Origin: Bacillus subtilis subsp. subtilis str. 168
GTDB taxonomy: Bacteria; Bacillota; Bacilli; Bacillales; Bacillaceae
NCBI RefSeq assembly: GCF_000009045.1
Contig: NC_000964.3
Location: 4,080,001 to 4,112,000 of the forward strand
DNA: 32,000 bases
Direction of reading: 5' to 3'
The number at the start of each line of letters is the position of its first letter. Position 1 is the stretch's first letter. The notes below the pieces were generated by a model. It had not been told where the DNA came from. It ran no database searches and saw nothing but the letters and a program-made list of their open reading frames with translations. Positions 2,920 through 23,661 of the stretch are shown piece after piece. The position numbers and the translations under genes are program-made.

Positions 2920-4383
2920 TTAGTTGAAATCAGGTGCCGGATATCTTGCCGTCACCACTTTTTTACGTGTATAGAAGTCGACGCTGTCTTTTCCGTTCGC
3001 ATGCAGCGTTCCAAAGAATGAAGATTTCCAGCCTGAGAATGGGAAGAACGCCATTGGAGCCGGCACACCAAGGTTGATGCCTAGCATTCCCGCATCAATG
3101 TTTTCACGGAAGTAGCGGATTGCGTTTGAGTTGGATGTGAACAAGCAGGCGCCGTTCGCAAACTCAGACTTATTGGCGATTTCAATCGCTTCTTTCAGGT
3201 TTTTCACACGGATGACAGATAAGACCGGAGCGAAAATTTCATCTTTCCAGATCGTCATTTCTGTTGTGACATTGTCAAAGATCGTCGGGCCGACAAAGTA
3301 GCCGTCGTCAGACACATTTTCACGTCCGTCACATACGAGTCTGGCACCTTCTTCAAGACCTTTTTCGATATAGCTGAGCGTGCGCTTCTTGTTGTCTTCG
3401 CGAATCACCGGTCCTAAGAACACGCCGTCATCAAGGCCGTTACCGATTTTAATGTCCGCCACTTTTTCCTGCAGCTTCGCCATAAATTCATCGGCGATTC
3501 CTTCTTCAACTGTCACAACCGCACAAGCCATGCAGCGTTCACCGGCAGAACCGAAGGCAGCTCCAACGATGTTTGTAACCGTGTCTTCAAGATTCGCATC
3601 GTTCAAGACAATCGTATGGTTTTTCGCGCCAGTCAGAGATTGAACGCGTTTTAAGTTTTCGCTTCCTTTTTTGTAGACGTATTCGCCTACTGGCTTGGAG
3701 CCTACAAATGAAATCGCTTTAATTTCGGGATGCTCGAGGATGCCGTTCACAACGTCATGCGCACCGTATACGACGTTGAACACCCCTTTCGGAAGGCCCG
3801 CTTTTTCAAAAAGCTCAACCAATTTCTCTGTTAACAGCGGAGTCCGCTCAGATGGCTTTAAAATAAATGTGTTGCCGAGCGCGATCGCCATCGGGAACAT
3901 CCAGCAAGGAACCATCATCGGGAAGTTGAATGGCGCGATTCCGCCGACAACTCCGATTGGGTAACGGTAGTTCGCCGCTTCAACGTCCGTTGCGATGGAA
4001 GCAAGTGAGTCACCCATCATCAGGGAAGGTGCTCCAGCGGCGAACTCTACGTTTTCAATCCCGCGTCCCACTTCACCTAAAGCTTCTTTCGTGTTTTTTC
4101 CGTTTTCAATGGTAATTAGATGAGCAAGTTCTTCTTTATGCTGAGACAGCAGCTGCTGGAAGTTAAATAGAATTCTGGCGCGGCGAGGAACCGCCACCTT
4201 TGACCATGTTTTAAATGCTTCAGCCGCTGTTTGCGCTGCGTAATCAATATCCTCTTTTGTAGAAATCGGCACTTGGCATAGCACTTCTTTCGTCGCCGGA
4301 TTGACGACATCTTCATATTGATCTGTTTTGCTTTCAACCCATTCACCGTTGATGTAGTTTTTTAATTTTCTGATTTCTGCCAT
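2920..4383 (-). CDS. iolA: IolA/MmsA, (methyl)malonate-semialdehyde dehydrogenase (CoA-acylating)
   Basis: This is track ORF 2920..4413 trimmed to the ATG at 4383 ([33 protein letters not shown]...), which is preceded by AAGGAGGCAA. It is an aldehyde dehydrogenase superfamily protein with a catalytic Cys context (GERCMA). The length is 487 aa. Confidence 0.94.
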
Positions 4384-5607: not shown

Positions 5608-6540
5608 ATGAAAAAAGCGAAGCTCGGAAAATCAGACTTGCAGGTATTCCCTATCGGATTAGGAACAAATGCTGTCGGAGGACATAACCTCTACCCGAAC
5701 CTAAATGAAGAAACCGGAAAAGAATTGGTGCGCGAGGCGATCCGTAATGGCGTGACAATGTTAGACACCGCTTACATTTACGGGATCGGCCGTTCCGAAG
5801 AATTAATTGGTGAAGTGCTGCGTGAATTCAACCGTGAAGATGTTGTCATCGCGACAAAAGCCGCTCACAGAAAACAAGGCAATGACTTTGTCTTTGATAA
5901 TTCACCAGATTTTCTTAAAAAATCAGTTGATGAAAGCCTGAAGCGCTTGAATACCGATTATATTGATTTGTTCTACATTCACTTCCCTGACGAACATACG
6001 CCTAAGGATGAAGCCGTTAACGCGCTGAATGAGATGAAGAAAGCCGGAAAAATCCGTTCCATCGGTGTATCCAACTTCTCTTTAGAGCAATTGAAAGAAG
6101 CAAACAAAGACGGTTTGGTAGATGTATTGCAAGGCGAATACAACCTGTTAAACCGTGAAGCGGAAAAAACATTCTTCCCGTATACGAAGGAGCATAATAT
6201 TTCATTTATCCCTTACTTCCCTCTCGTATCAGGTTTATTGGCAGGAAAGTATACAGAAGATACAACGTTCCCAGAAGGCGACCTGCGAAACGAACAGGAA
6301 CACTTCAAGGGTGAGCGTTTCAAAGAAAATATCAGAAAGGTCAACAAGCTTGCGCCGATTGCCGAAAAACACAACGTGGATATCCCTCACATCGTATTGG
6401 CCTGGTATTTAGCAAGACCGGAAATTGATATTTTAATCCCAGGAGCAAAACGTGCCGATCAGCTGATTGATAACATCAAAACAGCTGACGTGACGCTTTC
6501 TCAAGAGGATATTTCATTTATTGATAAGCTGTTCGCATAA
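5608..6540 (+). CDS. iolS: IolS, aldo-keto reductase
   Basis: The track ORF is trimmed to the ATG at 5608 ([25 protein letters not shown]...), preceded by TAGGAGG. It carries the AKR signature. The length is 310 aa. Confidence 0.93.
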
Positions 6541-13979: not shown

Positions 13980-15317
13980 ATGGAACAGCAAGTAAAGGAC
14001 GACATCCAGCGTGTCTTTCAGCTTCAGAAAAAACAGCAAAAAGCCTTGCGCGCTTCAACAGCGGAACAGCGGAGAGAAAAGCTTCAACGCTTTTTAGATT
14101 CCGTCATCGCCCATGAAGAAGAAATCATCGAAGCGATCCGCAAAGACGTCCGCAAACCATATCACGAAGTCAAAAAAGCGGAAATCGAAGGAACAAAAAA
14201 AGCGATTAGAGATAATATGAATAACCTGGAACAATGGATGGCGCCTAAAGAAGTCGGTTCATCGTTAAGCCCTGACGCAAACGGAATTCTTATGTACGAG
14301 CCTAAAGGCGTCACACTCATCCTCGGCCCGTGGAACTATCCGTTTATGCTGACGATGGCGCCGCTTGCCGCTTCTCTCGCAGCCGGAAACAGCGCGATTG
14401 TGAAGCTGTCCGATTTCACGATGAACACGAGCAACATTGCTGCTAAAGTAATAAGAGACGCTTTTGATGAAAAAGAAGTCGCGATTTTTGAAGGAGAGGT
14501 TGAGGTGGCAACCGAACTACTTGATCAGCCGTTCGACCATATTTTCTTCACTGGAAGCACAAATGTCGGGAAAATTGTCATGACAGCGGCTGCCAAACAC
14601 TTGGCATCTGTCACACTTGAGCTTGGCGGCAAGAGCCCGACGATCATTGACAGTGAATACGATCTGATGGACGCAGCGAAAAAGATCGCCGTCGGGAAAT
14701 TCGTAAACGCCGGCCAAACCTGCATCGCACCTGATTACCTGTTCATTAAAAAAGACGTTCAGGACAGGTTCGCGGGGATTTTACAAACAGTCGTCAACGC
14801 TGGATTTATGGAGGATGATCATACCCCAGACCGCAGCAAATTTACGCAGATCGTCAATGACCGCAACTTCAACCGCGTCAAAGATCTGTTCGACGATGCC
14901 ATCGAAAGAGGGGCGGAAGTGGTGTTCGGCGGCGTATTCGATGCCAGCGACCGCACGATCTCGCCAACCGTTTTGAAAAACGTCACGCCTGACATGAAAA
15001 TCATGCAGGAGGAAATCTTCGCATCGATCCTGCCAATGATGAACTATGAAGACATCGACGAGGTCATCGATTACGTAAATGACCGCGATAAACCGCTTGC
15101 ACTTTATGTGTTCAGCAAAAACCAAGATCTGATTGACAACGTCCTTCAGCACACGACATCAGGAAATGCCGCCATCAATGATGTCGTCGTCCATTTCAGT
15201 GACGTCAACCTGCCATTCGGCGGCGTCAACACAAGCGGAATCGGCTCCTATCATGGGGTATACGGATTCAAAGAGTTTTCTCATGAGAAGGGTGTATTTA
15301 TTCAGGCCGCTGAATAA
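13980..15317 (+). CDS. aldX: AldX, aldehyde dehydrogenase (class 3-like)
   Basis: This 445-aa ORF has SD GAGGGGG upstream. It carries the motifs ELGGKSP and the catalytic GQTCIAPDY. A TATAAT at 13933-13938 is a candidate -10 element. Confidence 0.93.
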   Translation: MEQQVKDDIQRVFQLQKKQQKALRASTAEQRREKLQRFLDSVIAHEEEIIEAIRKDVRKPYHEVKKAEIEGTKKAIRDNMNNLEQWMAPKEVGSSLSPDANGILMYEPKGVTLILGPWNYPFMLTMAPLAASLAAGNSAIVKLSDFTMNTSNIAAKVIRDAFDEKEVAIFEGEVEVATELLDQPFDHIFFTGSTNVGKIVMTAAAKHLASVTLELGGKSPTIIDSEYDLMDAAKKIAVGKFVNAGQTCIAPDYLFIKKDVQDRFAGILQTVVNAGFMEDDHTPDRSKFTQIVNDRNFNRVKDLFDDAIERGAEVVFGGVFDASDRTISPTVLKNVTPDMKIMQEEIFASILPMMNYEDIDEVIDYVNDRDKPLALYVFSKNQDLIDNVLQHTTSGNAAINDVVVHFSDVNLPFGGVNTSGIGSYHGVYGFKEFSHEKGVFIQAAE

Positions 15318-15327
15318 TCGCATGATC

Positions 15328-15358
15328 AAAAGGCGCTTCCTTAGAGGAGCGCCTTTTA
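15328..15358. terminator. Bidirectional terminator between convergent aldX and yxbD
   Basis: The hairpin is AAAGGCGCTTCC-TTAG-AGGAGCGCCTTTT. Confidence 0.75.
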
Positions 15359-15835
15359 TTGTAACTCCTTGACCAAAAGCAATTCATCACGGATAGGTAT
15401 TTTATTATCTGCCAGTAAAGGAATTTCGGGCTTCATCTTTCTGGCCGTCTCGACTGCATTCACAAATAGTCGATCCAACCGGTACCCTCTCTTCTGATAA
15501 AACGCTAATGCATGAATATTATCATTGGTTGTGATCAGTTTTATTTGTTTGATATTTCTCTCTCTGCATGCTTCCTCGGCTTTCTCTAGCAGAGCTGTTC
15601 CGATCCCTTTATTCTCAATGACACTATCCAGCGAAATGATTTCACAGGCATCTTCTTCAAATATGTATGTAATAAGGCCAACAATCTGGTTATCATCGTT
15701 GAGCATTCCATAACCATCTAATTCATCGCAGTTATAAATACCGCTAGAAATAACCATTTGCGGACTGCCCCAGTGTTTTTGAAAAAACGCGGAAACAAGA
15801 TCTTTAGGTACCTGGCATGTCGGAATAATATTCAT
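15356..15835 (-). CDS. yxbD: YxbD, GNAT-family N-acetyltransferase
   Basis: This 159-aa ORF has the GNAT motif A (ENKGIGTALLEKAE) and the C-terminal AFYQKRGY motif, with SD AAAGGAGGAA upstream. No terminator separates it from the upstream yxbC. Confidence 0.9.
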   Translation of the reverse strand: MNIIPTCQVPKDLVSAFFQKHWGSPQMVISSGIYNCDELDGYGMLNDDNQIVGLITYIFEEDACEIISLDSVIENKGIGTALLEKAEEACRERNIKQIKLITTNDNIHALAFYQKRGYRLDRLFVNAVETARKMKPEIPLLADNKIPIRDELLLVKELQ

Positions 15836-15914
15836 ATTTTCCTCCTTTTAGCTGAACAAAAATAAGAGAATTAACAACCTATTTTATGTCATTAATCCCC
15901 TTATCTAGTATTTA

Positions 15915-16907
15915 CTAGAACTTATAACTTGTCAAAAGCTGTCTGAATACCAATTGCGTGGATTGATAAGGATCAAAATCTGAATCCTGAGATTGGAAGA
16001 TTTGCTCTGGGGTCAATGTCTCTGCGTTCTCTGATAACGTTTGAATCAGACTTTCCAAATATCCATTTAACTCTGATTTGGACGATTCATGTAGGGATTG
16101 ATGATTTACAGCGAGTTCTCTAAATCTGTTATCACTGATTAATTTTTTTCGAAGAGCTGCTAGCATCAAGTCAAGCCATGCAGGCTGGCCAAATGTAATA
16201 TTTAAAGCTAACGTTGCTTGATCAGATTTGGTGGAGTGCCATAAACCTCTTGGCAAATACAGCATGGTTCCCGGTGTTAAATTAACGATTTCTGCATCTG
16301 GCAGATCCTCTTTTGGCGGATCTCCTTTCCAATATGACTGTAAATCATCAGGATAGTAAGGAGCCTCTGATAAATCATAGTGCTGCATTGGATTGCTCAC
16401 ATTTTCATTCTTGGCAAGCTTCCATGTTTTCTCACCTTGAATTTGAAAAATCAAGTTGGTGTAGGCGTCAAAATGGGCTTTGAATCCCCCGCCATTTTTC
16501 GCCGCGTAAACAATGGCTTTGGAAGAAGTACCCGCAGGCAGTCTTAATTCCGCTTTGAGTTTTTCTATCCACCTTCTGACTTGGGGAATAAATAGGTCGG
16601 TGAAATCAAACTCTAATGCAGCCCCTTTTTCATACCACTCTAAAGCCTCTGCAGGTGACACAAGAAATCTGTCTGTGATCCCTTCAGATTCTTCAATCAC
16701 AGCATCACCAACGACCATGACTGGATTATTGTAGATAGCCAATACGTTTTCTAGCGTTCTAACCTTTTCAAACCCCGGTATGCTTGTAAATCTCTCCACT
16801 TCTCCTCTGGCTACCAAAGGTTTTACAGGCCAATATTCTTCTAAAAACTCACTCATCGTTACAGGACTGATGATAGACTCCAAAACCGATTCGGTTACAG
16901 CACTCAT
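15915..16907 (-). CDS. yxbC: YxbC, JmjC/cupin-4-type Fe(II)/2-oxoglutarate oxygenase
   Basis: The track ORF is trimmed to the ATG at 16907 (MSAVTESVLES...), after GGGAGGGA. It has the HxD...H facial triad (FKAHFDAY ... LYLPRGLWHST) typical of JmjC/ribosomal-oxygenase-like cupins. The length is 330 aa. Confidence 0.88.
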   Translation of the reverse strand: MSAVTESVLESIISPVTMSEFLEEYWPVKPLVARGEVERFTSIPGFEKVRTLENVLAIYNNPVMVVGDAVIEESEGITDRFLVSPAEALEWYEKGAALEFDFTDLFIPQVRRWIEKLKAELRLPAGTSSKAIVYAAKNGGGFKAHFDAYTNLIFQIQGEKTWKLAKNENVSNPMQHYDLSEAPYYPDDLQSYWKGDPPKEDLPDAEIVNLTPGTMLYLPRGLWHSTKSDQATLALNITFGQPAWLDLMLAALRKKLISDNRFRELAVNHQSLHESSKSELNGYLESLIQTLSENAETLTPEQIFQSQDSDFDPYQSTQLVFRQLLTSYKF

Positions 16908-16971
16908 ATTATCCCTCCCAAAAAAAGTAACTTCACCACAAAGATATAACATTTTTTTCTAAAAGTAAATA

Positions 16972-17000
16972 TTGACAGAATTATCAGAGGATTATAATAT
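16972..17000 (+). promoter_or_regulatory. Sigma-A promoter of the peptide/yxbB-asnH operon
   Basis: A perfect TTGACA lies at 16972-16977. The -10 is either TATAAT at 16993-16998 (15-nt spacer) or TAATAT at 16995-17000 (17-nt spacer). The predicted transcription start is about 17005-17008. Confidence 0.6.
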
Positions 17001-17048
17001 TTAGTTGTGCGTGATAGCCTATTTTTTTACAAGGAAGGAGGGAAAAGG

Positions 17049-17117
17049 ATGAAAAAGGCTTATAAGAAACCTCGTCTTTTTGAACTGCGCCGTGCTGTAG
17101 CAGCTGGCGGCCATTAA
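17049..17117 (+). CDS. 22-aa peptide MKKAYKKPRLFELRRAVAAGGH, copy 1 (candidate RiPP/scaffold precursor)
   Basis: The ATG lies 6 nt after GGAGGG and the stop is TAA. It is too short for the ORF track. It is identical at the peptide level to copies 2 and 3, and differs from copy 2 only at wobble positions. Confidence 0.7.
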   Translation: MKKAYKKPRLFELRRAVAAGGH

Positions 17118-17166
17118 TCTCATATAGCATTTGACATCTAGTACTCTATTTTAGGAGGGATGCTCA

Positions 17167-17235
17167 ATGAAAAAAGCTTATAAGAAACCTCGCCTTTTTG
17201 AACTGCGCCGTGCTGTAGCAGCTGGCGGCCATTAA
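17167..17235 (+). CDS. 22-aa peptide MKKAYKKPRLFELRRAVAAGGH, copy 2
   Basis: The ATG lies 8 nt after AGGAGG (17153-17158) and the stop is TAA. The peptide is the same as copy 1. Confidence 0.7.
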   Translation: MKKAYKKPRLFELRRAVAAGGH

Positions 17236-17284
17236 TCTCATATAGCATTTGACATCTAGTACTCTATTTTAGGAGGGATGCTCA

Positions 17285-17353
17285 ATGAAAAAAGCTTATA
17301 AGAAACCTCGCCTTTTTGAATTGCGCCGCGCTGTAGCAGCTGGCGGTCATTAA
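17285..17353 (+). CDS. 22-aa peptide MKKAYKKPRLFELRRAVAAGGH, copy 3
   Basis: The ATG lies 8 nt after AGGAGG (17271-17276) and the stop is TAA. It has three synonymous changes relative to copy 2 (CTG>TTG, CGT>CGC, GGC>GGT). Confidence 0.7.
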   Translation: MKKAYKKPRLFELRRAVAAGGH

Positions 17354-17415
17354 TCTTATCCAAAACGATTAACGTTTGAGGCTATCACGCCAACTTGATA
17401 AGGAGGATGCTGAAG

Positions 17416-18150
17416 ATGATTACGGCTGAAGAATGCAGAACGTACAAAGAATTTGTTGATCTTTACCAATCCTATCTTTACCCCTTGCTTGGCGCCAGAC
17501 TGTCCCGGATGTATTCCCCCAAAAACAAAGTCATTATCGATATGGGCACAGGTCCAGGTTATTTAAGCATTCAGTTGGCTAAAAGAACAAATGCGCACGT
17601 GCATGCTGTCGATATTAACCCGGCCATGCATGAAATCGCTCAAGAAGAAGCTAAAAAAAGCGGAGTAAGCAGCCTGATTTCATTTGATTTGGAAGATGTC
17701 CACCATTTATCTTACGCTGACCAATATGCTGACTTCATCGTCTCCTACTCTTGCCTGCATCATTGGGAAGACGTTGTTAAAGGACTTAAAGAGTGCTATA
17801 GAGTTCTGGCTCCGGGCGGAAAAATTGTCATTTTGGATACATTTAATCCCCAAGGAAGCCATTTAGAGATTATGCGAAAACAAATCAAAGAACCGGAATA
17901 CTTCAGGTTTGTAAGAGAGGCATTTGAAGAAAGTTATTCCTTTGAAGACATTCACCAGTTTGTTCAGGATGCCGGCATTCCCAATTATTCATTAGAAACC
18001 TTTCACTTTTTACCGGAGGATTTTATAGAAAGCTTAGATGAGCTGGAGGATGCTCCCCTGTGGGAACAAAATGATCAAAGTACTGATCATGAAATTGAGT
18101 CTGTCACATGGATGTTAACGATAGAAAAAGAAAAGGAAGGTGCATTGTAA
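17416..18150 (+). CDS. yxbB: YxbB, class I SAM-dependent methyltransferase
   Basis: The track ORF is trimmed to the ATG at 17416 ([13 protein letters not shown]...), 9 nt after AAGGAGG. It has SAM motif I ([12 protein letters not shown]) and the post-I/II motifs ([23 protein letters not shown]). The length is 244 aa. Confidence 0.9.
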
Positions 18151-18419
18151 TGATCAATGAATCAACTGTTTTATCCAAAAATCCAGAAATGCCATCAAGA
18201 AAATATTTGAAAAGCATTATTATAGAGCCGGGCATCACTTTAAATGAAATGGCATCAGATATTTATAACCATATCGACGGCAAGGTCAGCATACATGATA
18301 TTTGCTCAAAAATCGTCAATGAATATGATGTTGATTATCAAACCTGCTTAGAAGATTGTATGGAGCTGTTTGAGTTGCTTATTGATCATGAAGCAATCAA
18401 AGTTAAGCAGGGGGCATGA
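18150..18419 (+). CDS. yxbA: YxbA, PqqD-like small protein (candidate RiPP recognition element)
   Basis: The ATG overlaps the yxbB stop (TAATG) and SD AAGGAAGGTG lies upstream. The 89-aa sequence ...[58 protein letters not shown] follows the PqqD pattern: a beta-strand, then x-W/Y-xxxDG-x-xxxxxI, then helices. Confidence 0.85.
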
Positions 18420-18422
18420 GAA

Positions 18423-18905
18423 TTGGAAAAACAAAAAGTGCTTGCTTTACCAGACGATGTACATGAGCTGAGTACACACCGTTCTAAATCAATCGTAAAT
18501 TACATCATCACTCTGCTTGCCTTTGCCAAAAAACAAGGATTGACTCATCAAGATATTGTAAGCTGGATTCACGAGCAATATGAGGAAAGAGGATATTATG
18601 ATGAGTGGAGACACATTAACAGCCAACAACCAGTTGGATCATTTGTGGAACTCTTTATAAAAGGAAGACGTTTACTTTATGACAAAATTGAATTGTTTGA
18701 AACAGAAGATAAATATGTCGTAAATACCCACACTTGGTATGAAAAAGAACCTAGTGAGGCCTTTTTTTATTTTGAAATTGATCCCGAAGAATTTTCTGCG
18801 TACGCTTCCATTCTCGCAATCGAAAACGCAAAACGTCTCGGAATTAAAATCGATATTGTAAAAGAAACAGATGTAGAGACAGCTTATATCTATAAACATC
18901 AATAA
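18423..18905 (+). CDS. yxnB: YxnB, 160-aa acidic protein with no recognisable family
   Basis: The ORF starts at a TTG 3 nt after the yxbA stop, so the exact start is uncertain. The codon usage is coherent and the gene is tightly packed in the operon. Confidence 0.8.
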   Translation: MEKQKVLALPDDVHELSTHRSKSIVNYIITLLAFAKKQGLTHQDIVSWIHEQYEERGYYDEWRHINSQQPVGSFVELFIKGRRLLYDKIELFETEDKYVVNTHTWYEKEPSEAFFYFEIDPEEFSAYASILAIENAKRLGIKIDIVKETDVETAYIYKHQ

Positions 18906-18925
18906 CGCTATTGGGAGGGAGACAT

Positions 18926-21169
18926 ATGTGCGGGCTCGCGGGTATTATAAATCTGGCTGCTCCCCGTTCTCAGGAATGTACCTTTCATATATTGAAAGGC
19001 ATGGCAGATGCCATCAGCTATAGGGGACCGGATGATGAACAATATCATATTGATTCCAAAGTCGGCTTTGCATTTCGGCGATTGTCCATTCTTGACCTTG
19101 TAAATGGACAGCAGCCCTTTTTAAATGAGGATGGATCAATCGTCGTTATGGTAAATGGAGAAATTTATAACTATAAAGAACTGAAGGCTTCTTTACACAA
19201 TCATATGTTTAAAACGACATCTGATTGTGAAGTAATTGTTCATTTATATGAAGAAAAAGGGATTGGATTTGTAGACGACATCATCGGAATGTTTTCAATA
19301 GCCATTTGGGACAAAAATAAAAACAAAGTATTTTTAGTTCGTGACCGCTTTGGGATTAAACCGCTTTTTTACACAGAGCTAAAACACGAGCTTATATTTG
19401 CCTCTGAAATAAAATCCCTATTTTCTCATCCTCACTGTCCCCGCCAATTTAATTGGAAAGAAGCACTCTCAGACATTTGGCTAAGCGGGGAAGCAGCCAG
19501 TAATCATAAAGAAACCACTTCCTTTTTTGTAAACATCCAAAATCTCGATGCTGGCCATTATCTCGAAATTAATTTGACAACAAATGAACGAAAAACAGCA
19601 AGCTATTGGTCTTTACAGGATATTTTGCTCAGGCAAGGCTATCGTGAGAATCTCCATCCCGATGACCTGATTGAAGGATATAGAGAACTGCTGGCAGATT
19701 CAGTCCATAGATGTTTACAAAGCGACGTTGAAGTCGGGTTGTTTCTTAGCGGTGGCATTGATTCAGCTGCAGTCGCACATTTTGCTGCAGAAAAACAGGA
19801 TCTCCATACGTTTACAGTATTAAGCCAAAGTACATTTACAAATGAAGATGCAAAATATGCCCATTGGCTGGCTAAAGATTTACACCTTCCAAATCATCAG
19901 GTTCTCTATCAATTAGGGAACGATGAGTTATTACAACCAGAGTCATATAAACATTTGTTATGGATCTGTGAAACACCGTTTTGCGGACCGGAACAATTAT
20001 ATAAGTTTCATTTACATAAGTATGCCAAAGCGATAAGGCCAAACCTGAAAGTCATGCTGACCGGCCAGGGCAGCGACGAATTTAACGGCGGTTACAGCAC
20101 GACACTTTCACCAGCCGAGAACCCAAGTTGGGAAGGATTTATTGAATCGGTCAATACGATGGAGATGAACCGGCTGCATCGGCTGCAGGGAAATATCTTT
20201 AGAGTGTGGGAGGAGCATTTTGGACTTTCTCCTATAAACCTTTCTTATTTAAAGAGCAATGATTCCAGCCAAGCAGATCCTTGGCAATCGTATGTCCTGA
20301 CAAAATACCGTGATCTGCAAATGTATAATTGCTGGCATGAAGATCGGATCGCCGCGGCTAATCATATCGAAAACCGTGTACCGTTCTTGGACCATCGGCT
20401 TGTTGAATGGGTTTGCGGAATACCTGATGGACTCCGTAAAGACTTGTTATGGGATAAGTCGGTATTGCGAAAATCATTAACAAATGAGCTGCATACAAGC
20501 TATACCCACCGGCCAAAGGTTCCTTTTTTCTATGGTAAGGACGTGAGATATACACATAAAATGATGTTTCATCTTCTGAAGAAAAACAATTATCAGCTTA
20601 TAGAGGAGGCCTTCTCTCACAGCGATGCCTCCAGCATAATACAGGTTGAACACATTCATGCCATCATGACATATTTGGAGGATGATCCTGAGTTTACAAA
20701 TTTTGAATTTTTATTAAGACTGGTGAACATGGGACTTTTATCAAAAATGACTAAAGAAACCCCTTCTGTTCAATTAGACATAACCAGCCATTTAGAATCG
20801 ATAACAATAAAAGACTGGCACTCACAGGAAGGTGATATTGCCAGTCGTTTAAATATCTCAGCCAATAAGTGTGAAGGACAAGATATTTTGGCGCTAAACC
20901 CTGGCGTCACTCTGTTAAGGCCGGAAAGCGATAGTGAGCATTGCATCTACATTGCGGAAGAAGGATTTATTCAGTTTATTGTTTCGGAGGAAGACGTCGG
21001 AGCTTGGCTGCATATTCTCTGCGATATTAATGGAAAAGACACACTTCATACGATTTTAGACAGACATGGTGTCAGCCTTGAAGAAGTGGCCAAATATATT
21101 CAAGAAGCCATCGAACACAATATCATTTTGATCAAACAAAAAAATCTGCCAGAAGGAGCATATAGATGA
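18926..21169 (+). CDS. asnH: AsnH, asparagine synthetase (glutamine-hydrolysing)-type amidotransferase with a C-terminal extension of about 120 aa
   Basis: The track ORF is trimmed to the ATG at 18926, giving MCGLAG with the Ntn Cys2 nucleophile, after GGGAGGGAG. The PP-loop SGGIDS is at 19748-19765. The length is 747 aa, against about 615-630 aa for the housekeeping AsnB/AsnO. Confidence 0.94.
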   Translation: MCGLAGIINLAAPRSQECTFHILKGMADAISYRGPDDEQYHIDSKVGFAFRRLSILDLVNGQQPFLNEDGSIVVMVNGEIYNYKELKASLHNHMFKTTSDCEVIVHLYEEKGIGFVDDIIGMFSIAIWDKNKNKVFLVRDRFGIKPLFYTELKHELIFASEIKSLFSHPHCPRQFNWKEALSDIWLSGEAASNHKETTSFFVNIQNLDAGHYLEINLTTNERKTASYWSLQDILLRQGYRENLHPDDLIEGYRELLADSVHRCLQSDVEVGLFLSGGIDSAAVAHFAAEKQDLHTFTVLSQSTFTNEDAKYAHWLAKDLHLPNHQVLYQLGNDELLQPESYKHLLWICETPFCGPEQLYKFHLHKYAKAIRPNLKVMLTGQGSDEFNGGYSTTLSPAENPSWEGFIESVNTMEMNRLHRLQGNIFRVWEEHFGLSPINLSYLKSNDSSQADPWQSYVLTKYRDLQMYNCWHEDRIAAANHIENRVPFLDHRLVEWVCGIPDGLRKDLLWDKSVLRKSLTNELHTSYTHRPKVPFFYGKDVRYTHKMMFHLLKKNNYQLIEEAFSHSDASSIIQVEHIHAIMTYLEDDPEFTNFEFLLRLVNMGLLSKMTKETPSVQLDITSHLESITIKDWHSQEGDIASRLNISANKCEGQDILALNPGVTLLRPESDSEHCIYIAEEGFIQFIVSEEDVGAWLHILCDINGKDTLHTILDRHGVSLEEVAKYIQEAIEHNIILIKQKNLPEGAYR

Positions 21170-22365
21170 GCATCTTTTATTCGTTTTCCGCACTTAGGGG
21201 ATTAGCAATGGGGATTTTTTCGCCTATTTGGATTCTTTATCTGATATCTAAAGATTATGATTTCCTTCAGATTGGATTAATGGGAGCGGTACTTGAAATT
21301 GCTAAGCTTATATTTGAAGTTCCTTCCGGCGTTTTTGCTGATCGTTATGGAATTAAAATTTCAATTGCCAGTTCATTCTTTTTCTCCATCCTTACATGGG
21401 CCTTCTTCCCTTTTATCGATTCAGCTGCTATTTGCATACTGGCTATGATCATATGGGCTTTATCAGATTCCTTAATTTCCGGTTCTTTTGAAACTTGGAT
21501 GAGCCGTGTCGCAGGGGAAGATCGATTCGGCAAAGAAATGATGAAAAACACACAATTGCTAATCACTTTTTTAATTATTGGAAGTATTGCCAGCGGGTAT
21601 TTGTATTCATTAAATATCTATTTTCCTTTCCTGCTCGTTATGGTGATCTACTTATTACTATTTATTTGGATGTCTGTATTTATTAAAGTCCCTTCTGTTT
21701 CCGAAACAAATCATGGGGATCAGAACCAACATGATTCGATAAAGATTATCAAAGAAAGTTTAAAAATTATCTTTAACAAAAAAAGGGTTCTTTTAATCGT
21801 CATAGCCGGTTTCTTTACAGCCACAGCCTATGACACAATTTCCCGTTACTGGCAGCCTTTTTTGAGTGATTTAGGCTTTTCAGAAAAGTCACTGGGATAT
21901 ATTTTTGCCCTAGGAGGGTTTACCGCTCTCGTTCTTTTGACATTAACCATCAGGTTCGAAAAGAAGATCGAAAAAAATCCATATCTCGCTTTAACCTCAT
22001 TGGATTCCATGGGCATGGTCATGACTTTTCTATTGTCTAGAGCATTCAGGCCGCTGGGCATTCCATGTACAGCGTTTTTGCTTGCAATTGAAGATATTCA
22101 TCATCCGATCGTAACAAGTTACTTAAATAAGTTTTTCCCCGATTCATACAAGAACACACTTTTCTCGTTAAACTCAGGGGTAGGAGCAATTGGAGAAATT
22201 CTTTCCGGTGTCATTTTCGGCATCATTTCCGCAGCCTTTGGGCTCTCTGCCATGTTTGTTGTTGTAGCTGTATTTCTATTAATCCCTATTATCCTTTATA
22301 CGATAGTGCCTAAGATTAAAGACAATGATATGAAAGTTCAGATTGAAAAATCCCAGCAAGTGTAA
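21166..22365 (+). CDS. yxaM: YxaM, MFS transporter (candidate exporter)
   Basis: This 399-aa ORF has its ATG overlapping the asnH stop (ATGA). It has about 12 hydrophobic segments, with a central loop around aa 185-200. Confidence 0.9.
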   Translation: MSIFYSFSALRGLAMGIFSPIWILYLISKDYDFLQIGLMGAVLEIAKLIFEVPSGVFADRYGIKISIASSFFFSILTWAFFPFIDSAAICILAMIIWALSDSLISGSFETWMSRVAGEDRFGKEMMKNTQLLITFLIIGSIASGYLYSLNIYFPFLLVMVIYLLLFIWMSVFIKVPSVSETNHGDQNQHDSIKIIKESLKIIFNKKRVLLIVIAGFFTATAYDTISRYWQPFLSDLGFSEKSLGYIFALGGFTALVLLTLTIRFEKKIEKNPYLALTSLDSMGMVMTFLLSRAFRPLGIPCTAFLLAIEDIHHPIVTSYLNKFFPDSYKNTLFSLNSGVGAIGEILSGVIFGIISAAFGLSAMFVVVAVFLLIPIILYTIVPKIKDNDMKVQIEKSQQV

Positions 22366-22382
22366 ATGTTTTGTATCACAGT

Positions 22383-22413
22383 AAGAAGACCTTCTTATTA
22401 AAAGAAGGTCTTC
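22383..22413. terminator. Hairpin between convergent yxaM and yxaL
   Basis: A perfect 13-bp stem, AGAAGACCTTCTT-ATTAA-AAGAAGGTCTTCT. The T-tracts are weak on both sides. Confidence 0.6.
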
Positions 22414-22428
22414 TGCTATTCTATTCAG

Positions 22429-23661
22429 TTATTTCCCAAAAGCCATCAGCTTCGTATAACTTCCAATATAAAGTGTTCCGTCCTCAGCGAGCTGAGGAGA
22501 AGACACGACGTTGCTGTCGGTTTGATAGCTCCATAATTCATTGCCGTTTGCGTCTGCCGCATAAACCTTCATATCATCTGACCCGAAATAAACCGTTCCC
22601 TTCGCGTCAATCAGCGGCGCCGTTCTGACAGGGCCGTCTGTGTAGAATGACCAGTTCATATCCCCGTTTTTGCTGATGGAAAACAGCTCGCCGCTTCCTG
22701 AGCCGATGTAGATATTGCCATTATGATCAATCGCAGGAGATGAGCTGGAGAACCCGTTTAGCGGGAATGTCCATTTCAAACTGCCTGTTGATGTATAAGC
22801 ATACAGCTGTCCATCTTGGTTGCCGGCATAAATGTTTCCGTCCTTATCAATCACCGGATATCCTTTAAACGCATTTGACGTCGTTCTGGACCATTTCACC
22901 TGTCCGGTTCCGGAGTTGATCGCATAAAACACGTAATTATATGTGCCGACATACACGGTGCCGTTTTTGGCAAGCACCGGCACAGAGCTGACGACCCCAT
23001 TTGTTTTCAACTTCCAGCGCTCTGTCCAGGTTGATTTTGACGTCGGTTTGATCGCGTGAACATAATTATCAAGTGTTGAGAAATACAACGTCCCGTCTGA
23101 ACCGATCACCGTTTCAGAGCTTGGCCCGCCGCTTAACGGAACCGTTGTTAAAATTTCTCCCGTTTCTTTGTCAATAAAATAAATCTTTTTGTCATAGGAT
23201 GCCAAATAGATAACGCCGTTGGTCCCAAGTACAGGAGATTGCGTATATGTTTTTCCAAGATTGCCCGTCACCCATTTGACTGAGCCGTCTGGATTAAAGG
23301 CTTTCATTTCCCCGTCTCTGGAATGAAGATATACTGTGCCGTCTCCGTCAATCACAGCCCCCGCTCCATTTTGCGGAGTCGTTCTGATGTCGTTTTGCCA
23401 TTTCAGCGTCCCGTCTGTATTTCCGGCGAACCGGCTTTCGCGTGACCAGTTAAACATGGCAGGCGCCATCGCTTGTACATCATATCTTCCTGGCAAAAAG
23501 CCAGATGCTCCATTATTTTGAGAAAACACCGTTTCCGCCGCATAAGCAGCTGTCGGCTGAAGCACTTTGGCAGCGGGCACATCAGAAACAGCGCCGGCCG
23601 AAACAGCCGCCGCCACCGCAGCTCCCGCAATCAAAGCTTTCATACGAAATGACTTGACCAT
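22429..23661 (-). CDS. yxaL: YxaL, secreted PQQ-like repeat beta-propeller protein
   Basis: The track ORF is trimmed to MVKSFRMKALIAGAAVAAAV... (410 aa). It has a signal peptide followed by repeated G-x-hydrophobic-Y-hydrophobic-G/S...W blades (GTVYLHS, GVIYLAS, GTLYFST, GTVYVGT, GNIYAGN, GNIYIGS, GTVYFGS, GTLYIGS). Confidence 0.9.
   Translation of the reverse strand: MVKSFRMKALIAGAAVAAAVSAGAVSDVPAAKVLQPTAAYAAETVFSQNNGASGFLPGRYDVQAMAPAMFNWSRESRFAGNTDGTLKWQNDIRTTPQNGAGAVIDGDGTVYLHSRDGEMKAFNPDGSVKWVTGNLGKTYTQSPVLGTNGVIYLASYDKKIYFIDKETGEILTTVPLSGGPSSETVIGSDGTLYFSTLDNYVHAIKPTSKSTWTERWKLKTNGVVSSVPVLAKNGTVYVGTYNYVFYAINSGTGQVKWSRTTSNAFKGYPVIDKDGNIYAGNQDGQLYAYTSTGSLKWTFPLNGFSSSSPAIDHNGNIYIGSGSGELFSISKNGDMNWSFYTDGPVRTAPLIDAKGTVYFGSDDMKVYAADANGNELWSYQTDSNVVSSPQLAEDGTLYIGSYTKLMAFGK

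Follow-up and report, generated by a model that had tools for sequence, protein, structure and literature searches.

A probable AsnH-centered peptide-modification gene cluster in Bacillus subtilis 168 with a conserved, tandemly encoded 22-residue peptide

We analyzed a window of 32,000 nucleotides from Bacillus subtilis subsp. subtilis str. 168 (contig NC_000964.3, positions 4,080,001 to 4,112,000) that includes the asnH operon; all coordinates given for B. subtilis are those of this window. The segment 15356-22414 is probably one gene cluster for a ribosomally made, post-translationally modified peptide (RiPP) or scaffold peptide, in which a short peptide encoded three times in the leader of the operon would be modified along a pathway centered on AsnH. 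The peptide is already annotated in strain 168, as a 'small expressed protein of unknown function'; thus, the open reading frames (ORFs) are not new, and what is new is their link to the enzymes. A preliminary description of this DNA had proposed that it encodes an AsnB-type amidotransferase within a RiPP or scaffold-peptide pathway. This proposal is supported by our analysis and fits the FzmA/FzmZ class published in 2026; the cluster appears by sequence to be a variant of a type of system described only in that year.

The three peptide ORFs belong to a tandem repeat (118 nt, 2.6 copies) and have identical 22-aa products (MKKAYKKPRLFELRRAVAAGGH, 3/3), each with its own AGGAGGG-type Shine-Dalgarno site 7 nt 5' of the ORF. 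All nucleotide differences among the three copies (5/5) were found to be synonymous; copies 1 and 2 differ by synonymous changes only, and copy 3 differs from copy 2 by three synonymous differences. Related loci were gathered from public genomes and metagenomes, starting with the YxnB and AsnH homologues, and peptides were counted in 11 loci (the window and 10 others) with 28 Firmicute copies and 1 copy from a Kofleriaceae (Myxococcota) metagenome-assembled genome (MAG). A Bacillus thuringiensis locus (L010) begins at the methyltransferase gene and stands outside these counts. The 69-nt pattern ATGAARAARNNNTAYNNNNNNCC-N34-GGNGGNCAYTRR recovered all of the Firmicute peptide genes in the gathered loci (28/28). 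A metagenome match to a 70-nt pattern (L014) was rejected as a chance match; the related genes are absent from its locus.

Beyond the window, peptide genes were detected in Bacillus, Halobacillus, Anoxybacillus, Paenibacillus and Alicyclobacillus, in a metagenome locus (L001) and in the Myxococcota MAG, at 1 to 5 copies per locus (Table 1). The product is 22 aa in 28/28 Firmicute copies and 23 aa in the single myxobacterial copy, and a C-terminal Gly-Gly-His followed by the stop codon is present in 29/29 copies. The motif Y5-x-x-P8 (Y5-K-K-P8 in the window) is kept in 28/28 Firmicute copies and is missing from the Kofleriaceae copy. The window peptide has the leader motif in its YxxPxL form, with 12 residues from the motif to the C-terminus. 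When the peptide genes of the window and L001 were compared, the proportion of synonymous differences (pS) was 0.73, which is near saturation, and that of nonsynonymous differences (pN) was 0.022; pN/pS was 0.066 between the window and Halobacillus and 0.03-0.07 for the closest relatives overall. Inter-ORF spacers varied between species in both length and sequence. In the closest loci (L001, L003 and L009) identity of the neighboring enzymes is only 53-68%; thus, of all products of the locus the peptide is conserved best. Taken together, this pattern of substitution indicates that the three peptide ORFs are conserved coding genes. The peptide ORF of the Myxococcota locus (L007) is located between the methyltransferase and PqqD genes, outside any leader. 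Its product has no Asp and no Glu, and among all peptide variants the one shared carboxylate is therefore that of the C-terminus.

Eight parts were found to recur with the peptide in an order shuffled among genera: JmjC dioxygenase, peptides, methyltransferase, PqqD-family protein, YxnB, GNAT acetyltransferase, AsnH and MFS exporter. The presence of these parts together despite their changing order is good evidence for one functional unit. By comparison of gene neighborhoods, this unit reaches upstream into the divergent genes yxbC and yxbD (15356-16907), which encode the JmjC and GNAT proteins. The preliminary description had taken the operon as the unit; its set from the peptides to yxaM was confirmed, while yxbC and yxbD had been missed. 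A Pfam scan of 17 window proteins (~8.0-27.3 kb of the window) also returned the domains expected of YxbB, YxbA, AsnH and YxaM, with the E-values listed in Table 1. The anticipated co-occurrence of the peptide ORFs with homologues of yxbB, yxbA, yxnB and asnH held in the 10 other readable loci, asnH being lost in the decayed cluster of Bacillus sp. 28A-2; with this exception AsnH is encoded in every locus with a contig that reaches far enough.

The methyltransferase gene adjoins the PqqD gene in all related loci. In L001, L003, L004, L005, L009, L015 and L016 (seven other loci) the JmjC gene adjoins the peptide genes, and in L007 it follows yxnB ~2 kb downstream. Seven related loci also encode an MFS protein (L003, L004, L005, L009, L010, L015 and L016), that of Bacillus xiamenensis being of a different type. 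In Paenibacillus the divergent operon is JmjC-MFS-GNAT, and the gene order in B. xiamenensis is YxnB/GNAT fusion, MFS and AsnH. The operons of Halobacillus and B. thuringiensis end with a stand-alone GNAT, to which YxbD is 51-52% identical. The identity of YxbD to the YxnB-fused GNAT domains of Alicyclobacillus suci, B. xiamenensis and Halalkalibacter is 32-36%; these YxnB-GNAT fusions tie yxbD into the cluster.

AsnH was examined in an alignment of 44 homologues. Cys2 (the catalytic Cys, which follows the initiator Met), R52, N77, E79 and D100 (which bind glutamine), the PP-loop S275GGxDS280, and E385, Y390 and K531 were invariant or nearly so. Based on these intact glutaminase and adenylation residues, and in contrast to a lasso cyclase, AsnH is predicted to be active as a glutamine-dependent adenylating amidotransferase. 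The Glu-Tyr dyad of peptide-amidating asparagine-synthetase-like (AS-like) enzymes is present in AsnH as E385/Y390. The aspartate-binding Asp-Arg pair of Escherichia coli asparagine synthetase, which we take to be D384/R387, aligns to AsnH N468/H471, which are near-invariant in the AsnH family. The best AsnH relative in the PDB was TsnB9, a hydroxyamidotransferase that moves hydroxylamine onto a polyketide acid. The invariant Gly-Gly-His together with the intact adenylation and glutaminase sites is consistent with AsnH acting on the peptide's C-terminal carboxylate.

The AsnH family was found without a stand-alone context, the gene being embedded in peptide-modification clusters in every sampled case, and AsnH homologues of 38-46% identity were located in RiPP-like clusters in 5/5 sampled cases (L011, L012, L013, L017 and the loci of the Gly-Gly-His type). 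Full-length comparison of AsnH with Streptomyces homologues gave identities of 39-41%, the enzyme of L012 being at 41%. This Streptomyces locus has an unannotated 22-aa ORF at 5853-5921 (MKKYIKPQVKKVSFGSVLSNVA, beginning MKKYIKP) with a strong Shine-Dalgarno site and the YxxP motif, and its neighbors are MFS, PqqD and NTP-transferase genes, an Rce1-like protease and a B12-radical SAM enzyme. In Brevibacillus sp. Leaf182 (L011) a candidate 19-aa ORF at 3874-3933 (MKKIVVKKGSTVARINEGY, Shine-Dalgarno site AAAGGAG), which is without YxxP, is followed downstream by a TPR protein, a 76-aa protein, an O-methyltransferase and an MFS protein. The AsnH-like enzyme of Bradyrhizobium (L013, 1679-10301) is encoded beside a PatG-like S8 protease, four precursors of 47-53 aa and an S9 peptidase, and that of Thiomargarita (L017, 1506-8659) beside a C39-peptidase ABC exporter and small ORFs.

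YxbA scored 42 bits against PF05402 (cutoff 23.4), and its family profile matched the solved PqqD structure 3G2B (1e-5) and the lasso PqqD chaperone 9X90 (6e-5), followed by TfuB1 and TbiB1. The best NCBIfam match was lasso_PqqD_Bac (NF033536), at 29.7 bits against a cutoff of 80. By these scores YxbA clearly belongs to the PqqD family, as the preliminary description had predicted of a discrete RiPP recognition element (RRE). A second element of this kind may be fused to AsnH, of which ~150 residues extend beyond the Asn_synthase domain and are kept in >100 homologues from Firmicutes, Actinobacteria, Proteobacteria and Chloroflexota. In the AlphaFold2 model of AsnH (predicted local distance difference test score, pLDDT, 90.9; predicted template-modeling score, pTM, 0.90), residues 654-737 run through four strands and three to four helices to a last strand, a topology consistent with an RRE, and sporadic winged-helix Pfam matches were detected in the C-termini of the family. 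The C-terminal 189 residues alone gave no match in a word-indexed protein database, and a Foldseek search of full-length AsnH was dominated by the catalytic domains and is therefore silent on this region. An RRE-like domain at residues 654-737 is thus likely but not established.

YxbC is identical to PDB entries 1VRB and 7ZCC and was placed in the MINA/NO66/YcfD clade, the next-best solved relatives being the histidyl hydroxylases MINA53 and NO66 (E ~1e-7). It has the JmjC_2 fold and the metal-binding triad in common with MINA53, NO66, YcfD and CzlI; the nearest characterized relatives hydroxylate the beta-carbon of protein histidines, and CzlI, a structural neighbor, hydroxylates a RiPP precursor. 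Sequence similarity of these enzymes to YxbC is low. YxnB had no match in Pfam or NCBIfam, was called unique in a 2025 preprint, and had been taken for an orphan in the preliminary description. This latter view did not hold, as an exhaustive HMMER search recovered a family of ~50 clusters at 50% identity where a word-indexed search gave only 2. Many of the homologues are 310-345 residues long because of an added C-terminal GNAT domain homologous to YxbD. The AlphaFold2 model of YxnB (pLDDT 94) is a helical bundle with two beta-hairpins, with no obvious catalytic residues, and a Foldseek search of the PDB gave only weak matches with template-modeling scores <0.5 (de novo designs, Bet3/TPC6, H-NOX and BcsD). 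We read YxnB as a putative adaptor for the GNAT. For the methyltransferase YxbB, no equivalog was found in NCBIfam.

The closest precedent for this set of proteins comes from one of two 2026 preprints from the same laboratory (PMC13060819 and PMC13622209). FzmA, an AS-like enzyme to which an RRE is fused C-terminally and which is often encoded near a discrete PqqD protein and an MFS protein, adds hydrazine or glutamine-derived ammonia to a 22-residue precursor at its C-terminal Arg (bioRxiv 2026, PMC13622209). It accepts Gln, Glu-NHOH and glutamylhydrazide, and the fosfazinomycin precursor, which was overlooked for its small size, has an N-terminal YxxP motif; a methyltransferase acts next, after which housekeeping aminopeptidases free the small product (PMC13622209). 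The asnH locus appears to fit this published pattern point by point. Both it and the FzmA/FzmZ/FzmT/FzmH system of late fosfazinomycin biosynthesis ('cluster 58' AS-like enzymes) have an AS-like enzyme, a discrete PF05402 RRE, an MFS protein, a SAM-dependent methyltransferase and a 21/22-aa precursor with N-terminal YxxP, to which a carboxylate modification of the FzmZ type would be common; neither has a dedicated protease. The YxxP motif is needed for RRE binding in another Bacillota family and is found in the FzmZ-type 21/22-mers; therefore, its presence in the peptide was counted in favor of RRE binding. The neighborhood of the Streptomyces locus L012, with an enzyme ~40% identical to AsnH, is of the published type. 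By contrast, the B. subtilis cluster is without a nucleotidyltransferase, an AurF-like oxygenase, and hydrazine and phosphonate genes, its precursor ends in His after an invariant Gly-Gly rather than in Val-Arg, the JmjC dioxygenase and YxnB/GNAT pair are additional, and the precursor gene is present in 1 to 5 tandem copies.

TsrC and ScdTA amidate peptide C-termini, PesC turns the carboxylate at a peptide's C-terminus into an amide and then into a nitrile, and ~300 RiPP-associated AS-like enzymes are still uncharacterized (PMC13060819). TsrC, ScdTA and PesC are glutamine-dependent, ATP-adenylating enzymes that act on the C-terminal carboxylate of a ribosomal peptide and have the Glu-Tyr dyad in common with AsnH, and the nitrilobacillins combine this reaction with non-heme iron hydroxylases; however, precursor families, leaders and accessory enzymes (MNIO, HExxH and M16 peptidases) are different, and a BLAST search with PesC gave relatives only within its own cluster type. 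The N-acetylglutaminylglutamine amide pathway (AsnO and Ngg) similarly pairs an AS-like amidotransferase that amidates the C-terminus with a GNAT that acetylates the N-terminus, but its dipeptide substrate is made non-ribosomally and it has no RRE, precursor gene, oxygenase or methyltransferase; a match of AsnH to TIGR03104 belongs with this comparison. A PQQ/mycofactocin-type pathway, to which the locus had been likened earlier, was ruled out: no Radical_SAM domain, as in PqqE or MftC, was detected by the Pfam scan of the window proteins.

From these comparisons we infer the site and order of every reaction, the binding of substrates and the nature of the product in a scheme with the following steps. 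The three tandem genes would supply the 22-mer in large amounts, and its N-terminal MKKxYxxP would serve as a leader bound by YxbA and probably also by the RRE-like C-terminal domain of AsnH. The invariant Gly-Gly-His would be the site of chemistry. AsnH would adenylate the His22 carboxylate and add glutamine-derived ammonia to yield a C-terminal amide (possibly a nitrile, or the product of another nitrogen nucleophile, instead); YxbC would hydroxylate a side chain, most likely at the His22 beta-carbon, YxbB would methylate, and YxnB with the GNAT YxbD would acetylate an amine. Housekeeping peptidases may trim the leader, and YxaM would export the small product. The chemistry that we prefer would thus be C-terminal His amidation with hydroxylation, methylation and acetylation, followed by export. 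On a more tentative level, which we rate as rather unlikely in its full detail, B. subtilis and scattered other bacteria would make a small His-derived metabolite, an end-capped, hydroxylated and methylated fragment of the Gly-Gly-His-amide type cut from a consumable 22-mer, and tandem gene copies would be explained by the yield of one product molecule per peptide molecule. Free Gly-Gly-His-amide is a textbook amino-terminal copper- and nickel-binding (ATCUN) motif, and such a metabolite could be a metallophore of ribosomal origin or a signal sensed by neighboring RNPP-type regulators.

Several observations weigh against this scheme. No dedicated protease is encoded in the cluster by the Pfam scan of the 17 window proteins, and release of a small product is therefore a conjecture. 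The target of YxbC is guessed from distant relatives (E ~1e-7). The match of the AsnH C-terminal domain to the YxbA family by hhalign was weak (E 2e-4, probability only 45%), and this domain had no Pfam PqqD match and a non-significant best match to a PqqD structure (E 0.55). AsnH also scored above the cutoff of TIGR01536, the model of true asparagine synthase (361 bits versus 267). In addition, as cited elsewhere, AsnH rescued an E. coli asparagine auxotroph (Yoshida 1999) and would thus be able to act on free aspartate, and a 'long sequence triplication', in the words of a title cited elsewhere, is credited with RNA stabilization (Morinaga 2010). These latter points would be accounted for if the repeats were only an RNA-stabilizing leader or regulatory upstream ORFs and asnH were a redundant housekeeping asparagine synthetase with unrelated neighbors. 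We consider this very improbable. Synonymous sites and spacers diverge but the amino acids of the peptide are conserved, the number of copies varies between 1 and 5, and the Myxococcota ORF is outside a leader; an Rfam search of the B. subtilis leader found no family, and the segment from peptide 3 to yxbB folded no better than its shuffles (z = -0.6). AsnH, for its part, has N468/H471 at the Asp-Arg positions and homologues in RiPP-like clusters everywhere sampled, and an asnH deletion had no growth phenotype and left peptidoglycan amidation unaffected. The repeat may nevertheless have an RNA-stabilizing role alongside peptide coding.

Alternatives that keep the cluster and change its product deserve more weight, although each appears to us on the unlikely side. 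The modified full-length 22-mer, its termini capped and its net charge about +6 to +7, could itself be the product, for example a cationic antimicrobial or a signal. Such a product would suit the missing protease, the strong conservation of the whole peptide, beyond Gly-Gly-His, among close relatives, and the RNPP-type peptide-sensing regulators that adjoin the cluster in two species; however, the peptide is no longer than a typical leader, its N-terminal half is an RRE-binding motif, and the exporter is an MFS protein of 12 transmembrane segments rather than a peptide ABC transporter. Moreover, the 22-mer of the closest precedent is a scaffold trimmed by housekeeping peptidases, and positions -4 to -7 vary freely (AVAA, VVVA and MTID) whereas Gly-Gly-His never does. 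Doubtful to a similar degree is that AsnH installs a nitrile like PesC or a hydroxamate or hydrazide from a glutamine analogue like TsnB9 and FzmA, or modifies Glu12 or another carboxylate. The relation to TsnB9, the range of nitrogen donors taken by FzmA, the passage of PesC from amide to nitrile and the E or D at position 12 of Firmicute peptides are in its favor, whereas no N-oxygenase or hydrazine-forming gene was detected in the cluster by the Pfam scan of window proteins, and the Kofleriaceae peptide is without any acidic side chain, a point the weight of which depends on asnH being present in L007.

An atypical or degenerate lasso-peptide cluster with a B1-type RRE and a C-type cyclase, the analogy drawn in the preliminary description, was the least probable of the alternatives and is refuted by its defining features. 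A PqqD-type RRE for a YxxP(xL) leader and an AsnB-superfamily adenylating enzyme are common to both systems, the best NCBIfam match of YxbA is the lasso chaperone family, and AsnH matches the lasso cyclase model NF033535. Yet both model scores are far below cutoff (for AsnH, 190 bits versus 525), and AsnH retains Cys2 and all of the glutamine-binding residues. No core peptide with an Asp/Glu acceptor at 7-9 is present, and no B2 transglutaminase-like leader protease was detected in the 17 window proteins or the Pfam-annotated genes of L009, L010, L015 and L016.

The cluster appears to have escaped assignment in the literature, as had been suspected. Papers treat the locus as the asnH operon, a literature search on yxbA, yxbB, yxnB, yxbC and asnH with RiPP found no paper tying it to a peptide natural product, and it goes unmentioned in the text and one supplement of the two 2026 preprints. 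No Gram-positive model is studied better than B. subtilis 168, of which the natural-product clusters are thought fully catalogued. If the proposed pathway is correct, one biosynthetic pathway would take in the textbook 'third asparagine synthetase' together with the 'long 5' leader of unknown function', and candidate substrates would be provided for YxbC, which has been solved, and YxnB, which has been modeled, both of unknown function. The chemistry of AS-like enzymes on peptide C-termini would likewise be extended into a genetically tractable host. Three strongly translated small genes would also give a simple account of the RNA-stabilizing effect of the repeat by explaining the reported stabilization of the 5' part of the mRNA.

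Table 1. Features of the B. subtilis window (coordinates of the window) and peptides of related loci (copies per locus and product).
Feature	Position	Strand	Remarks
yxbD, GNAT acetyltransferase	15356-15835	-	Acetyltransf_1 1e-14
yxbC, JmjC/cupin Fe(II)/2-oxoglutarate dioxygenase	15915-16907	-	JmjC_2 1e-15; divergent from peptide operon
Sigma-A-type promoter of peptide/asnH operon	16972-17000	+	TTGACA, 17 nt, TAATAT
Peptide copy 1, MKKAYKKPRLFELRRAVAAGGH	17049-17117	+	Shine-Dalgarno site AAGGAGGG 7 nt upstream
Peptide copy 2, same amino acids as copy 1	17167-17235	+	own Shine-Dalgarno site
Peptide copy 3, same amino acids as copy 1	17285-17353	+	own Shine-Dalgarno site
yxbB, class I S-adenosylmethionine (SAM)-dependent methyltransferase	17416-18150	+	Methyltransf_11 8e-25
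yxbA, discrete PqqD-family RiPP recognition element	18150-18419	+	PF05402 (PqqD) 1e-10, 42 bits
yxnB, conserved helical/beta-hairpin protein	18423-18905	+	putative partner of GNAT
asnH, glutamine-dependent asparagine-synthetase-like amidotransferase	18926-21169	+	Asn_synthase 8e-69, GATase_7 2e-43
AsnH C-terminal domain, likely RRE-like winged helix, residues ~654-737	20885-21136	+	AlphaFold2 topology
yxaM, predicted MFS exporter	21166-22365	+	MFS_1 8e-26
Intrinsic terminator hairpin between convergent yxaM and yxaL	22384-22414	+	13-bp stem, 5 GC pairs
Peptides of L001, metagenome			3 copies, MKKAYKKPRLFELRRAVVAGGH
Peptides of L009, Halobacillus trueperi			3 copies, MKKAYKKPRVFELRRA[VI]VAGGH
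Peptides of L003, Anoxybacillus mongoliensis			2 copies, MKKEYKKPRAFELRRAVIAGGH
Peptide of L004, Alicyclobacillus suci			1 copy, MKKVYKAPRIVEIERAAVVGGH
Peptides of L005, Bacillus xiamenensis			5 copies, MKKVY[KR][TN]PRLV[ED]IRNVVVAGGH
Peptide of L006, Bacillus sp. 28A-2			1 copy, MKKVYKTPRLVEIRNVVVAGGH
Peptides of L015, Paenibacillus wenxiniae			5 copies, MKKVYKKPRALELRRMTIDGGH
Peptides of L016, Paenibacillus sp. EKM208P			2 copies, MKKVYKKPRALELRRMTMDGGH
Peptide of L007, Kofleriaceae MAG (Myxococcota, GC-rich)			1 copy, MQKKKYVQAKVYRLRRAVMAGGH

The signals of the operon were largely as described before. The yxbB stop and yxbA start overlap as TAATG (18148-18152), yxbA and yxnB are separated by 3 nt with yxnB starting at TTG 18423, the 20-nt gap between yxnB and asnH contains the Shine-Dalgarno site GGGAGGGAG ahead of ATG 18926 (product beginning MCGLAG), and asnH and yxaM overlap as ATGA (21166-21169). 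All four junctions and the strong hairpin after yxaM agree with the preliminary description. The convergent gene yxaL ends at 22429, and by its position between the two genes the hairpin probably terminates both. The promoter was upheld in part. TTGACA is present at 16972-16977, but the perfect TATAAT at 16993-16998 that had been paired with it leaves a spacer of 15 nt, and a spacing of 17 nt reads TAATAT; moreover, promoter-like matches did not exceed those of shuffled sequence (14 found versus 21.5 expected), so that the match alone is at chance level. The promoter is supported because its position fits a published 420-nt leader upstream of yxbB, described as long and of unknown function, with the top cDNA count in the table of that study. 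A perfect TTGACA is also present in each inter-ORF spacer of the repeat (17125-17130 and 17243-17248). No -10 element was seen at proper spacing to either hexamer, and they are therefore probably not internal promoters.

Two of the related loci were found to be decayed. In Bacillus sp. 28A-2 (L006, 8400-11600) the peptide gene, methyltransferase, PqqD and YxnB-GNAT are kept, with only a remnant of JmjC, a shortened MFS and no AsnH; Halalkalibacter oceani (L008, 3600-5110) has a frameshifted YxnB-GNAT and a shortened peptide-like ORF (MKTLYMKPGVFIRARD). A Peptidase_M29 aminopeptidase gene, possibly for a leader-trimming enzyme or there by coincidence, is located <5 kb from the AsnH-type gene in Halobacillus (L009, 1905-3158) and Brevibacillus (L011, 12550-13662); none was detected near the cluster in the window. 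RNPP-type regulators (HTH_3 and RNPP_C), a family that senses small imported peptides, adjoin the cluster in H. trueperi (L009, 3911-4879) and B. thuringiensis (L010, 7666-8559), which hints at a link to peptide signaling. Finally, the GC content per kb at 15001-22000 of the window was 0.365-0.42, and most of the flanks were at ~0.43-0.49 with one lower kb at 24-25 kb; this AT-richness and the patchy taxonomic distribution of the cluster are compatible with horizontal acquisition.

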